Program-made: the position numbers and the translations under genes
From: a bacterium
Lineage (GTDB): Bacteria > UBA6262 > WVXT01
Assembly (NCBI GenBank): GCA_046759165.1
Contig: JBHIBS010000025.1
Span: 1-21,511, forward strand
Length of the DNA: 21,511 bases
Reading direction: 5' to 3'
Shown: piece after piece, positions 4,727 to 21,511 of the stretch
Layout: each line of letters opens with the position of its first letter
Position numbering within the stretch: position 1 is the stretch's first letter
Notes under the pieces: model-generated
What the model saw: only the letters and a program-made list of their open reading frames with translations
What the model was told of the DNA's origin: nothing
Databases searched by the model: none

Positions 4727-4745
4727 TCTCTCTCCACAAACAAGA

Positions 4746-4960
4746 TAACCCCTTCGGGGTTACTTCCATAGGGGCTTCGCCCCTCTGGCGTTCCAAATGT
4801 CCACCAGACATTTACTTCTCTGTCCTCCGGGGCGCTCACAGTCTCGCGCCCGTCGCTAACACGGAGCTCCTTATTCGTCGCTCCAGCGACCCCTTGAGGG
4901 AAACCAGATTGTTTCCCTCAAACTCCCTAATCCGCATAGGAATTTTTCAAATTCCTATGC
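4746..4960. repeat. Cluster of short perfect hairpins filling the thrB-lysC spacer (REP-like)
   Basis: TAACCCC-TTC-GGGGTTA 4746-4762; AGGGGC-TTC-GCCCCT 4770-4784; AAATGTC-CACCA-GACATTT 4795-4813; TTGAGGGAAAC-CAGATT-GTTTCCCTCAA 4894-4921; GCATAGGAATTT-TTC-AAATTCCTATGC 4934-4960; plus the element at 4827-4892. Confidence 0.85.
4827..4892 (-). repeat. ~66-bp structured repeat, family B, copy 1
   Basis: Aligns with 21402-21468 and shares CCGGGG, TCACnnTCTC, CCCGTCGC, CTCCTTATTCGTC and GCGACCC; stems differ by compensatory changes. Confidence 0.85.
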
Positions 4961-4966
4961 TTAAGA

Positions 4967-11048: not shown

Positions 11049-11155
11049 ACACGACCGAAACCAAATCAAATGAGCACCACACCCAGTACCAAAAGCAAAA
11101 TTTTTCTTCTCATGTTGCACCTCAGCCCATTCCAAAATACGCACTTATTCTTCAC

Positions 11156-11334
11156 TAAGAGATAGTTTTTGAAGAGGTCTTCGGATTTTAGCCAAAAAAC
11201 GAGGGCGGTTTATCTTCTTTTAAGCAAAAATTTGTTCGACTCCTGCTTTGCAAGGGAGTCCATTTTTGCGGCCTGCAAAGTCCGAAGTTTTTTCGCGTCA
11301 AAAAATTCCTCAGCAATGAACAAATTACCTCTTA
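11156..11334 (+). mobile_element. ~180-bp MITE/REPIN-like structured element, family A, copy 1 (more degenerate)
   Basis: Ends TAAGAGATAGTTT / AAATTACCTCTTA (11/13 inverted); colinear with 15281-15460 (shared GCCAAAAAACGAGGGCG, AAGCAAA, CCGAAGTTTTTT, AAAAAATTCCTCA). Confidence 0.7.
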
Positions 11335-11336
11335 AC

Positions 11337-14622: not shown

Positions 14623-15213
14623 TTAAGAGTATAGTTTCTTCCTGCGGATATACTTTTCCACGCATTGGGGCAGCAAATATATAATTGGCTTACCAGCTTT
14701 TATCCTGTTTCGAATGTCCGAAGCGGAAATCTCTAAGCCAGGGACTTGTAGCATTATAACTTTAGAAGCTATTTTTTTATCCAACTTTCCTAACTCATAA
14801 CCCGGCCTCGTAACTACCACAAATTTGCACAGTCCTATCAACTTCCTCGGTTCTTTCCAGGTAGAAATTTTCAACATTTCGTCTAACCCAACAATGAAAT
14901 AGATTTTACCTCTCTTGCCATAAATCTTTATAAATTCTCTTATTGTTTCCAGAGTAAAAGTGGGACCATCTACAATCTTGCTCTTTTCTATCTCTATTGG
15001 AGAGACTTCGAATGAAGAATTCCCCTTTATCGCCAGACAGGCCATCTCATACCGTTCATCAGGAGTCGCTCCTTTAACCTTTTTATGTGGCGCCTTTCCT
15101 GCCGGAACAAAGATAACCTTATCTAATTTAAGTCTATCCTTAACCTCACTGGCGAGAACCAAGTGCCCATAGTGGACTGGATTGAACGTCCCTCCCAGAA
15201 TCCCAATTCGCAT
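14623..15213 (-). CDS. nadD: Nicotinate-nucleotide adenylyltransferase
   Basis: GILGGTFNPVHYGH, PHKK, FIVGLD, ISASDIR; strong GGAGG RBS. Confidence 0.96.
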   Translation of the reverse strand: MRIGILGGTFNPVHYGHLVLASEVKDRLKLDKVIFVPAGKAPHKKVKGATPDERYEMACLAIKGNSSFEVSPIEIEKSKIVDGPTFTLETIREFIKIYGKRGKIYFIVGLDEMLKISTWKEPRKLIGLCKFVVVTRPGYELGKLDKKIASKVIMLQVPGLEISASDIRNRIKAGKPIIYLLPQCVEKYIRRKKLYS

Positions 15214-15280
15214 TCCTCCTCCTTTATTTTTTGAACATACACTATTTATCCTGCAGATTTTCTACCGCTACTACTGACAT

Positions 15281-15460
15281 TTAAAAGATAGTTTATGAGG
15301 AGCCCTCGGAATTTTTGGCCAAAAAACGAGGGCGACTCTTTCTCTTTCAAGCAAATCATTGTTTGACGAGCGAAGCGAGGAGTTTTGATTTGTGCCTTAC
15401 AGAGCCCGAAGTTTTTTGGTGTTAAAAAATTCCTCAAGCGACGAATAAACTATCTTTTAA
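15281..15460 (+). mobile_element. 180-bp MITE/REPIN-like structured element, family A, copy 2
   Basis: Perfect 16-bp terminal inverted repeat TTAAAAGATAGTTTAT (15281-15296) / ATAAACTATCTTTTAA (15445-15460); internal stems GGAATTTTT/AAAAATTCC, CCAAAAAAC/GTTTTTTGG, GGGC/GCCC, GCAAATCA/TGATTTGT; apical GCGAAGC. Confidence 0.78.
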
Positions 15461-15466
15461 TTTAAT

Positions 15467-16723
15467 CTATTCTCTTATCTGTCCATTTCCGAATATTAGA
15501 AACTTCACACTTGTCAACTCCCTCACTCCCATTGGACCCCGGGCATGAAGCTTTTGCGTGGAGATGCCAATCTCAGCTCCCATCCCGAACACTCCACCAT
15601 CAGTAAACCTGGTAGAGGCATTCCAGAAAACTGAAGAGGCGTCGACTTCCTTTAGAAATCTTTGAGCAGCATCTTCATCCCTGGTTACAATTGCCTCGGA
15701 ATGCATCGACCCATACCTATTGATATGGTCTATGGCTTCCGAGAGGGAGTCAACGACTTTGACTGAGAGAATCAGATCCAGATATTCAGTACTCCAATCG
15801 TCTTCACTGGCATTCTTAATATGCGGAAGGATACTTTTCGCCTTCTCATCCCCGCGAATTTCCACCTTCACTTGCTCAAGTTTCTTAATCATCCGGGGTA
15901 AGAATTCACCTGCAATATCATTATGGACTAAAAGGGTTTCCATAGCATTACACACACCCGGCCTCTGCACCTTAGCATTAAAACATATCGTTTCTGCCAT
16001 TTCCAGATCAGCGTCCCTATCTACATAAGTATGGCAGACTCCTTTACCATGACTAATCACTGGAACGGCAGAGTTCGCTTTTATATTCTTTATCATCTCC
16101 TCACCGCCTCGAGGAATTACCACATCGATAAATTCATCCAGCTTTATGAGCTGGAACACCGCTTTTCTCTCCGTAGTCTCCACCAACTGGATCGCACCCT
16201 GAGGAATTCCAGATGAATAAGCAGCCTGTTGTAAGACCTTTGCGATAATTGTATTAGAGTTTATTGCCTCCGAACCCCCACGCAAGATAACCGCATTACC
16301 TGCCTTAAGGCATAGCCCTGCTGCATCAGAGGTTACATTGGGACGCGATTCATAGATTATAGCTATAACACCCAGAGGTACCTTTATTTTTTTAATTCTC
16401 AAACCATTGGGCCTTATCTTCTCTTCAATAACTTCACCAACCGGATCGGGCAGTTCGGCTATTTCCCCCAAACCTTTAGCCATGTTCTTAATTCTCTTAT
16501 CATTTAAAGTTAGCCTATCAATCAATGCAGGATTAAGACTTGCCTCTTTAGCTTCTTTTAAGTCGATCCTATTCTTGGACTTGATATCTTCAGCGCTATC
16601 CTCGATCGCCTCAGCCATCGCAAGGAGTGCTCTATTCTTCAATCGGGAACTTAGATTGGCCATTGCACTCGATGCTGACTTTGCACTTCTTGCCATCTTT
16701 TCGATTTCTTTCATAGCCTCCAT
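15467..16723 (-). CDS. proA: Gamma-glutamyl phosphate reductase
   Basis: PLGVIAIIYESRPNVT, GNAVILRGGSEA, IPRGG, RPGVCNAMETLL, NASTRFTDG, EIGISTQKLHARGPMG. Confidence 0.97.
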   Translation of the reverse strand: MEAMKEIEKMARSAKSASSAMANLSSRLKNRALLAMAEAIEDSAEDIKSKNRIDLKEAKEASLNPALIDRLTLNDKRIKNMAKGLGEIAELPDPVGEVIEEKIRPNGLRIKKIKVPLGVIAIIYESRPNVTSDAAGLCLKAGNAVILRGGSEAINSNTIIAKVLQQAAYSSGIPQGAIQLVETTERKAVFQLIKLDEFIDVVIPRGGEEMIKNIKANSAVPVISHGKGVCHTYVDRDADLEMAETICFNAKVQRPGVCNAMETLLVHNDIAGEFLPRMIKKLEQVKVEIRGDEKAKSILPHIKNASEDDWSTEYLDLILSVKVVDSLSEAIDHINRYGSMHSEAIVTRDEDAAQRFLKEVDASSVFWNASTRFTDGGVFGMGAEIGISTQKLHARGPMGVRELTSVKFLIFGNGQIRE

Positions 16724-21379: not shown

Positions 21380-21511
21380 CCTTTCGCTTCGCTCAATCCG
21401 GCCGGGGTTCTCACCATCTCGAACCCGTCGCCAGACTTGTCGCTCCTTATTCGTCCCGACGGCGACCCTTTCGCTTCGCTCAATCCGGCCGGGGTTCTCA
21501 CCATCTCGAAC
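21380..21511 (-). repeat. Direct repeat with 87-bp period containing the family B element, truncated by the window end
   Basis: 21380-21424 is identical to 21467-21511 (45 bp); 21402-21468 is homologous to 4827-4892. Confidence 0.88.

Follow-up and report, generated by a model that had tools for sequence, protein, structure and literature searches.

An intergenic rod-shaped repeat with conserved tandem G.A mismatches lies antisense to its neighbouring genes in a small bacterial phylum

The window analysed here is a stretch of 21,511 nucleotides (contig JBHIBS010000025.1 of assembly GCA_046759165.1) and belongs to a genome, G000, of 1.885 Mb in 165 contigs with 42% G+C and 92% completeness. 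In a spacer between two genes transcribed from the - strand, positions 15281 to 15460 of the + strand form an imperfect palindrome over their full length, closed by a terminal stem, interrupted by tandem G.A steps and capped by a GCGAAGC apex. The parts of this element, a member of what is called family A below, and the features around it are as follows.

15281-15296, + strand: left terminal arm, TTAAAAGATAGTTTAT (family consensus TTAAAAGATAGTTTGT), the exact reverse complement of 15445-15460
15297-15303, + strand: left half of the basal G.A motif, GAGGAGC
15304-15364, + strand: left arm of the rod, with the GGAATTTTT, CCAAAAAAC and GAGGGC helices, a pyrimidine-rich internal loop and the GCAAATCA helix
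15365-15382, + strand: apex, composed of GA-C-GA, the GCGAAGC mini-hairpin (15370-15376) and GA-G-GA, and reading GACGA-GCGAAGC-GAGGAG
15383-15437, + strand: right arm of the rod, with TGATTTGT, GCCC, GTTTTTTGG and AAAAATTCC
15438-15444, + strand: right half of the basal G.A motif, GCGACGA
15445-15460, + strand: right terminal arm, ATAAACTATCTTTTAA, with TAA and TAG stops in two frames on the - strand
15467-16723, - strand: gene upstream in the operon, proA-like and of the aldehyde-dehydrogenase family, with 6 nt between its stop and the element
14623-15213, - strand: gene downstream, cytidylyltransferase-like and nadD-like, with 67 nt between its start and the element
15249-15280, - strand: REP-like flank in degenerate form, with CTAC repeats on the + strand that read GTAG in sense direction, followed by ACAT
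11155-11335, + strand: second family A copy ("copy 1") between argS-like and MBL-fold genes, in the same orientation

The end-to-end fold described in the initial annotation, with its perfect 16-bp stem, G.A motifs and GCGAAGC apex, was recovered in full at 15281-15460, and the inner helices named there are present. A repeat search returned the arms of the element as the longest inverted repeat of the window. In the basal motif GTGAAGAGC stands against GCGATGAAC, and in the window copy the pairing of GAGGAGC with GCGACGA gives the series G.A, A.G, G-C, G.A, A.G, G-C, C-G. Folded as DNA, the + strand of this copy reaches -33.2 kcal/mol (z -4.9) and the - strand -31.1 kcal/mol (z -4.2), and for neither strand was any of 200 shuffles as good. 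In the minimum-energy fold of the single sequence the left arm forms a local hairpin; the full rod is seen in the centroid and in the family consensus. The apex corresponds to d(GCGAAGC), an unusually stable DNA mini-hairpin (PMC13037366).

A sequence link to a second repeat of the window, family B, had also been claimed through a common 11-mer. This holds for the window copy, which carries GCGACGAATAA, but not for the family, since the 11-mer occurs in only one of 28 aligned copies, most of the others having GCGATGAACAA instead. Family B is likewise present in many copies and is found at 4827-4890 and at 21380-21511 of the window; at the latter place, which is the contig end, its 87-nt unit lies in tandem. 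It has about 20 BLAST loci in G000, several of which are 94-98% identical and situated at contig ends, so that it looks younger than family A. Small G+C-rich hairpins crowd the spacer at 4727-4966, upstream of an aspartokinase-like gene; this spacer has no Rfam match and resembles positions 125-271 of contig C5 over 148 nt at 84% identity.

Family A is abundant in G000. The initial annotation had proposed a genome-wide copy count, and a profile built from 15 full copies (nhmmer, E <= 1e-3) gave 78 non-overlapping matches that merge into 71 loci over the 1.885 Mb, which establishes a multi-copy non-coding element. Both ends are present in 27 copies of 46-261 nt, and 15 of these measure 178-190 nt; in short forms the tip of the rod is missing and both ends are retained, and long forms contain additional small hairpins internally. 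Pairwise identity among 16 full G000 copies has a median of 0.72 and a maximum of 0.87, which indicates that the copies in this genome are old. Contig ends fall within 300 nt of a family match in 8 of 330 cases against 9.8 expected, and this lack of enrichment makes it unlikely that identical copies are hidden in the gaps of the G000 assembly.

The phylum comprises 12 genomes in total in GTDB, those of the relatives being 76-98% complete. BLAST matches were obtained in all nine genomes of the GTDB family that includes G000 (f1; from 8 to at least 45 matches per genome) and in neither of the two genomes of f2, and there was one weak match in f3. The exact right-end pattern occurs at 29 loci in 7 MAGs titled 'Clostridia bacterium', with one further match that is likely due to chance, and at 120 or more metagenome loci; searches of viral contigs and of plasmids with the same pattern gave no match. 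The f3 genome, G011, harbours a version in which the inner rod and the apex G.A motif are shared and the termini are different, yet still complementary to each other. It has 19 matches, the 12 best of which are 94-100% identical, and about 10 of the 19 stop at a contig end. The near-identical copies show that the family is still spreading in this lineage.

The unit in G011 measures about 217 nt with a conserved pyrimidine-rich left extension included, and is sometimes found in tandem (contigs C286, C204 and C95). Copies at 94-100% identity break the assembly there, at about 10 contig ends.

Conservation of the fold was assessed in an alignment of 68 copies, 16 from G000, 12 from relatives and 40 from metagenomes, with a hand-curated rod of 48 pairs. 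Pairing is found in 96.1% of 3108 cells, and 25 of the 48 pairs display double changes (126 cells); none of 500 shuffles reached these levels by any measure, and slid controls were at most 55% paired. The 16-pair terminal helix taken separately has 96.2% of its cells paired and double changes in 9 pairs, and mean pairwise identity is 0.81 in paired columns versus 0.63 in loops. The initial annotation had made its reading depend on conservation of the G.A steps among copies, and conserved they are. The basal G.A is present in 64 of the 68 copies (15 of 16 in G000) and the basal A.G in 65 (14 of 16 in G000), the 40 metagenome copies having been picked by a right-end pattern that contains part of this motif. 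The pair between the basal steps is A-T in 60 copies and G-C in one, the window copy. Near the apex the G.A is kept in 67 of 68 and the A.G in 66 of 68, and the pair enclosed there covaries (CG 48, TA 5, GC 5, AT 3, TG 3 and GG 2 among 66 of the copies). The hairpin at the tip is less constant, being of the GCGAAGC type in 19 copies, of the CCGA..TCGG type in 36 and of other types in 13. Since other small hairpins replace GCGAAGC in most copies, this apex sequence is not essential.

Several lines of evidence converge on the + strand, that is the strand with the G.A mismatches, as the one on which the fold is maintained. Of the ten positions with a conserved mismatch, nine have G.A or A.G on this strand and would consequently be pyrimidine-pyrimidine on the other, and the G.A mismatches recur at four separate places of the rod, some of them far from the ends. 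With RNA parameters the + strand folds better in 23 of 28 copies (-60.0 vs -53.1 kcal/mol), and with DNA parameters in 22 of 28 copies, where the gap is small (-31.1 vs -30.0 kcal/mol). The consensus energy from RNAalifold is -21.1 on the + strand and -6.4 on the complement. On the curated pairs, with pair 38-179 left out as its consensus is itself U.G, G.U was counted in 93 cells and A.C in 45; G.U exceeds A.C at 24 pairs and the reverse is seen at 10. This excess runs against compositional pressure, because third codon positions of the sense strand have more G than C and more T than A. The young G011 copies likewise have G.T wobbles in the terminal stem, on the same strand as in family A. 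The strand specificity claimed from the window copy alone is thereby extended to the family, and the fold is both strand-specific and under structural constraint.

This strand has a fixed relation to the neighbouring genes. With crude gene calls (longest ORFs of at least 90 aa), the G.A strand in G000 is antisense to the ORF on its 5' side, i.e. the downstream one, in 64 of 66 cases and to the ORF on its 3' side, the upstream one, in 56 of 63; among the 71 loci it is antisense on both sides at 50 and sense on both sides at none. On metagenome contigs (81 matches) the corresponding figures are 60 of 63 on the 5' side and 71 of 71 on the 3' side, and the 11 young copies of G011 for which a flanking gene could be called are antisense without exception. 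The antisense placement noted for the window operon is thus a family-wide property, and the orientation of the family is near-absolutely tied to the direction of neighbouring genes in old and young copies alike.

Orientation relative to replication is hard to separate from orientation relative to transcription, since only 109 of 1043 crude genes (10.5%) on G000 contigs of at least 20 kb lie on the minority strand; 101 neighbour pairs switch strand there. Five elements lie between two minority-strand genes, and all five are antisense to those genes. A cause of the orientation in replication only is weakened by these cases, of which only two, both on contig C9, fall in a clear block of minority-strand genes.

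The neighbours are housekeeping genes (proA-like, nadD-like, rsfS, argS-like and others), and the element sits between co-directional genes, where it usually fills the space between the stop codon of the one and the ribosome-binding site of the other almost completely. The upstream ORF ends at a TAA or TAG within the terminal arm in 17 of 45 full metagenome copies, and in most metagenome copies 0-120 nt separate the end of the element, in sense direction, from the next start. A flank logo places ACAT often 3' of the element in sense direction. IS200/IS605 elements have a conserved target tetra- or pentanucleotide 5' of the left end; counted at the left end of the 68 aligned copies, ACAT precedes the element in 13, CAT in 17 and AT in 25. 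A CTAC within 20 nt upstream of the left end, from an adjoining REP hairpin of GTAG type, is found in 26 of the 68, and intact GTAG hairpins stand beside other copies where the window copy has the degenerate flank at 15249-15280. Runs of A6 and T6 bracket the inner rod; in 32 of 68 copies the CTTTTAA that closes the outer stem has TT behind it.

Comparison between relatives indicates that the family has been gained or lost at individual sites. The proA-nadD spacer contains a full copy in G000 and G001, only the right half in G006 and G008, and a 70-nt mini form in G005; in G003 and G004 both ends are present and the interior has been replaced, wholly or in part; G002 has REP hairpins only and G007 nothing. 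The termini at this site differ among the genomes by paired changes in both arms. Thirty-three loci of relatives were mapped onto G000 and eight of them aligned, with one, L127, left out as it aligned too poorly. At five inspected loci a full copy is present in the relative and none in G000, the exact junctions being blurred by diverged intergenic DNA. Gain or loss between relatives is thus evident, as is the presence of young near-identical copies in the sister lineage.

The flanking sequences of 27 G000 copies, and those of 28 aligned ones, show no target-site duplication. Where the termini vary, the two ends change together as inverted repeats (TCAA/TTGA, CTAA/TTAG, TTGA/TCAA), in no case as direct repeats, which argues against a duplication of the target. 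The initial annotation had suggested a search for longer versions with the same ends around an ORF. None enclosing a transposase ORF turned up, whether in G000, in the 454 kb surrounding 80 metagenome loci or in G011: pairs of ends 1-6 kb apart in G000 proved to be unrelated partial copies, the sole split end pair among the metagenome loci encloses a hypD-like gene, and in G011 only units of about 183 nt lie between family ends. Taken together, these observations describe a mobile or formerly mobile, non-coding and strand-asymmetric rod, constrained in structure and locked antisense to transcription.

Enzymes that could act on such a rod were looked for in G000 and its relatives. Two G000 ORFs, at 49.7-50.5 kb of contig C4 and 2.3-3.1 kb of contig C40, reach the NCBIfam model of REP-associated tyrosine transposases (RAYT; NF047646, cut-off 80 bits) with 85.8 and 80.1 bits. 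Each of these Y1 genes is bracketed by inverted copies of its own short repeat, GGGGTCAGAGTCA (AAAAAGGGGTCAGAGTCATTTTTT-type) with 25 sites and GGGGACAGGCTAC with 9, and the family profile has no match at the Y1 loci, whose flanks are occupied by these other repeats. Across relatives Y1 genes do not appear to track the element. In genomes 76-98% complete, Y1 matches were obtained in 6 of 8 f1 relatives, 1 of 2 in f2 and the single one in f3, and the element in 8 of 8, 0 of 2 and 1 of 1, respectively; G006 and G007 have no Y1 match yet 8 and 30 element matches, and G009 has a Y1 gene and no element. IS200-type tnpA genes (139-168 aa), with tnpB-like ORFs (395-416 aa) behind them, are present in G003 (contigs C100 and C7), G004 (C27) and G008 (C22), and the profile search found no family copy beside the tnpA genes of these relatives; in G000 no match to the TnpB domain was obtained. 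Transposases above cut-off in G000 number seven for DDE_Tnp_1, two for DDE_3 and four for rve, and no family ends were detected on the G000 contigs with DDE_Tnp_1, rve, DDE_3 or IS110 transposases. GTAG hairpins are overrepresented in G000, with 113 against 38-84 for control tetranucleotides.

These GTAG-tagged REP hairpins fall into several sub-families in G000 and are stacked head to tail in some spacers, as at locus L062, the proA-nadD spacer of G002. Their orientation is biased and not locked (45 sense-sense vs 16 antisense-antisense). Of the 25 sites with AAAAAGGGGTCAGAGTCATTTTTT-type repeats, 14 lie between genes in sense orientation. Two stretches just upstream of the RAYT gene on contig C4 resemble tRNA genes.

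The element resembles REPIN/BIME, ERIC and Correia repeats in kind and fails the testable defining features of each. In size it stands apart from REPs and REPINs, with 180 nt against 20-40 nt for the former and about 70-110 nt for the latter. It also has no GTAG at its 5' ends, which read TTAAAAGATAG, GTAG being present only in the separate adjoining hairpins; the RAYT genes are flanked by other repeats, G000 has no cloud of identical copies, and the orientation is locked to transcription. Common to both are RAYT genes in the same genome and, in G000, GTAG-tagged REPs beside many family copies. REPINs and REP-BIMEs with RAYT are likewise non-coding intergenic hairpin repeats, mostly downstream of genes, long-lived, vertically inherited and devoid of target duplications, and their recognition is strand-specific and based on mismatches (PMC3116915, PMC3337134, PMC8266576, PMC3733652). 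For one REP family, unpaired GA residues are mentioned and G-T pairing is taken as a sign of transcription in PMC3733652.

The likeness to ERIC/IRU and Correia/NEMIS lies in imperfect palindromes of 100-200 bp with terminal inverted repeats in transcribed intergenic regions, the lack of an own transposase, size variants by internal insertion or deletion, and transcripts that fold into long stem-loops with an mRNA effect that depends on orientation, all as given in the accessible parts of PMC2229807 and PMC3184786. The same texts describe neither a conserved tandem G.A architecture nor a near-absolute orientation bias for these repeats, and the TA ends with target duplications reported in PMC2229807 are absent from family A. 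The Chunjie MITE of Geobacter uraniireducens is close in its 178-235 bp, A+T-richness, very stable predicted hairpin and position inside operons; it has 21-bp terminal inverted repeats flanked by 9-bp direct repeats (PMC3184786), whereas no direct repeats are found here.

Like the present element, IS200/IS605 elements leave no target duplication; they are recognised as folded single strands whose stems are irregular, and their hairpins are subterminal where the present element is an end-to-end rod. Their expected strand relative to replication is also the opposite one: in the IS608 model the active strand is on the lagging-strand template, the sense strand of co-directional genes, and the folding strand of the element is antisense to the genes, the direction of replication being inferred from the 89.5% of genes on the majority strand. 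To our knowledge there is no sequence similarity between family A and ERIC or Correia.

Integron attC sites are imperfect palindromes directly behind the stop codons of co-oriented genes and are recombined as a folded bottom (antisense) strand with unpaired bases as the mark. Inspection by eye of the element ends found no RYYYAAC / GTTRRRY core heptamers, and attC was rejected; unlike cassettes, the neighbours are syntenic housekeeping genes, and the copies are scattered over all contigs. A kink-turn was rejected as well, the tandem G.A steps being flanked by Watson-Crick pairs on both sides with no three-nucleotide bulge. A rod of stacked tandem G.A steps with near-absolute orientation bias was not encountered in the literature searched, a partial review outside the subscription journals.

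How the element spreads and why its orientation is fixed are matters of interpretation, and one reading is that the host selects it as a cis-acting RNA of the sense strand, an intercistronic hairpin serving mRNA stability, processing or translational coupling, a role also proposed for REP, ERIC and MIRU elements, its mobility being past. The lock to transcription and the position between co-directional genes agree with this, as do an upstream stop inside or at most 12 nt from the terminal stem in most full copies and a downstream start usually 0-120 nt off; the site is moreover kept at an orthologous locus across genera with stems more conserved than loops, and orientation matters for the mRNA effect of ERIC (PMC2229807). 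We nevertheless consider it rather unlikely. The transcribed strand is the one that folds worse (it is better in 5 of 28 copies, and the consensus is -6.4 vs -21.1), the conserved mismatches are pyrimidine-pyrimidine on it, a count on the opposite strand gives fewer A.C than G.U, and the young near-identical G011 copies show ongoing spread. The G.U pairs and tandem G.A steps that weaken this reading would favour the + strand as the functional RNA, either as a one-way terminator or insulator against antisense transcription or as a family of antisense small RNAs, and the A6/T6 runs together with CTTTTAA then TT in 32 of 68 copies make the + strand rod resemble a hairpin followed by U's. These A and T runs are symmetric, however, and so appear on the other strand too, and the flank logo at the left end contains only the complement of a ribosome-binding site and ACAT, with no conserved promoter. 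A promoter scan of either strand at the element was negative, and Rfam gave no match at the gathering score in the window and none at E <= 1 in 15180-15560. An action of the G.A strand as RNA is unlikely, and the undescribed non-coding RNA entertained in the initial annotation gains no support from Rfam (E <= 1) or from the promoter scans.

A further reading would make the element a classical MITE, moved as double-stranded DNA by cut-and-paste of a DDE transposase through its 16-bp terminal inverted repeats, with the G.A pattern as a difference between the left and right sites. The terminal repeats are indeed perfect or near-perfect, and G000 encodes DDE_Tnp_1, DDE_3 and rve transposases. This is quite improbable given that no target duplication, no transposase contig with family ends and no long version (in G000, the 454 kb around 80 metagenome loci or G011) was found, that the G.A mismatches lie at four separate places including some far from the ends, and that the sister-family version keeps the inner rod while its termini differ.

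The reading we favour, with a probability of about 0.45, is that of a lineage-specific, non-autonomous REPIN/ERIC-like rod that is handled as a folded single strand and kept only where the weaker complement is present in operon mRNA. Handling as a single strand fits the lack of target duplications and the conservation of the purine-purine mismatches. The element would then spread as a folded single strand with the polarity of the G.A strand, and a trans-acting single-strand DNA enzyme, similar to HUH/Y1 RAYT or IS200-type proteins, may read the purine-purine mismatches as a strand mark. Such enzymes bind folded single strands strand-specifically by way of mismatches or bulges (PMC8266576). As RNA the G.A strand would be a very stable hairpin adjoining U runs, and hence presumably polar, so that tolerated insertions may be only those which give the weaker rod, with C.U and A.C instead of G.A and G.U, in operon mRNA. 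In the mRNA a tolerated rod would draw the stop codon close to the ribosome-binding site that follows, much like an intercistronic hairpin of REP/ERIC type. The initial annotation had likewise proposed recognition in folded single-stranded form by an enzyme acting in trans, and that proposal fares well in respect of the missing target duplication and the conserved mismatches, but no enzyme could be tied to the family. RAYT and IS200-type proteins are the nearest precedents for such an enzyme.

Some observations stand against this favoured reading of a single-strand REPIN/ERIC-like rod. The candidate RAYT genes are flanked by other repeats and the distribution of Y1 genes does not appear to follow the element, which has no GTAG tag of its own; its folding strand is the opposite of the one expected from the IS608 model, the copies in G000 are old, and the energy gap between the strands with DNA parameters is small (-31.1 vs -30.0). 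We also envisage, as an improbable case, that these rods represent a novel type of single-strand mobile element or of host signal, in which a template-strand hairpin of stacked sheared G.A pairs is inserted or retained by reading the direction of transcription and is served by an enzyme unrelated to RAYT or IS200. A hairpin in the template strand could in that case also be a barrier in one direction only, stopping antisense transcription but not that of the operon.

REP, REPIN, ERIC and Correia repeats are common, and both their movement and their retention by the host are still debated. The present family gives clean handles on both, with invariant tandem G.A pairs among covarying neighbours as the strand mark. 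If the orientation lock stems from the mechanism of insertion, it would point to an undescribed, transcription-oriented single-strand pathway; if it stems from selection, the family would serve as a natural test of the amount of hairpin that operons tolerate.
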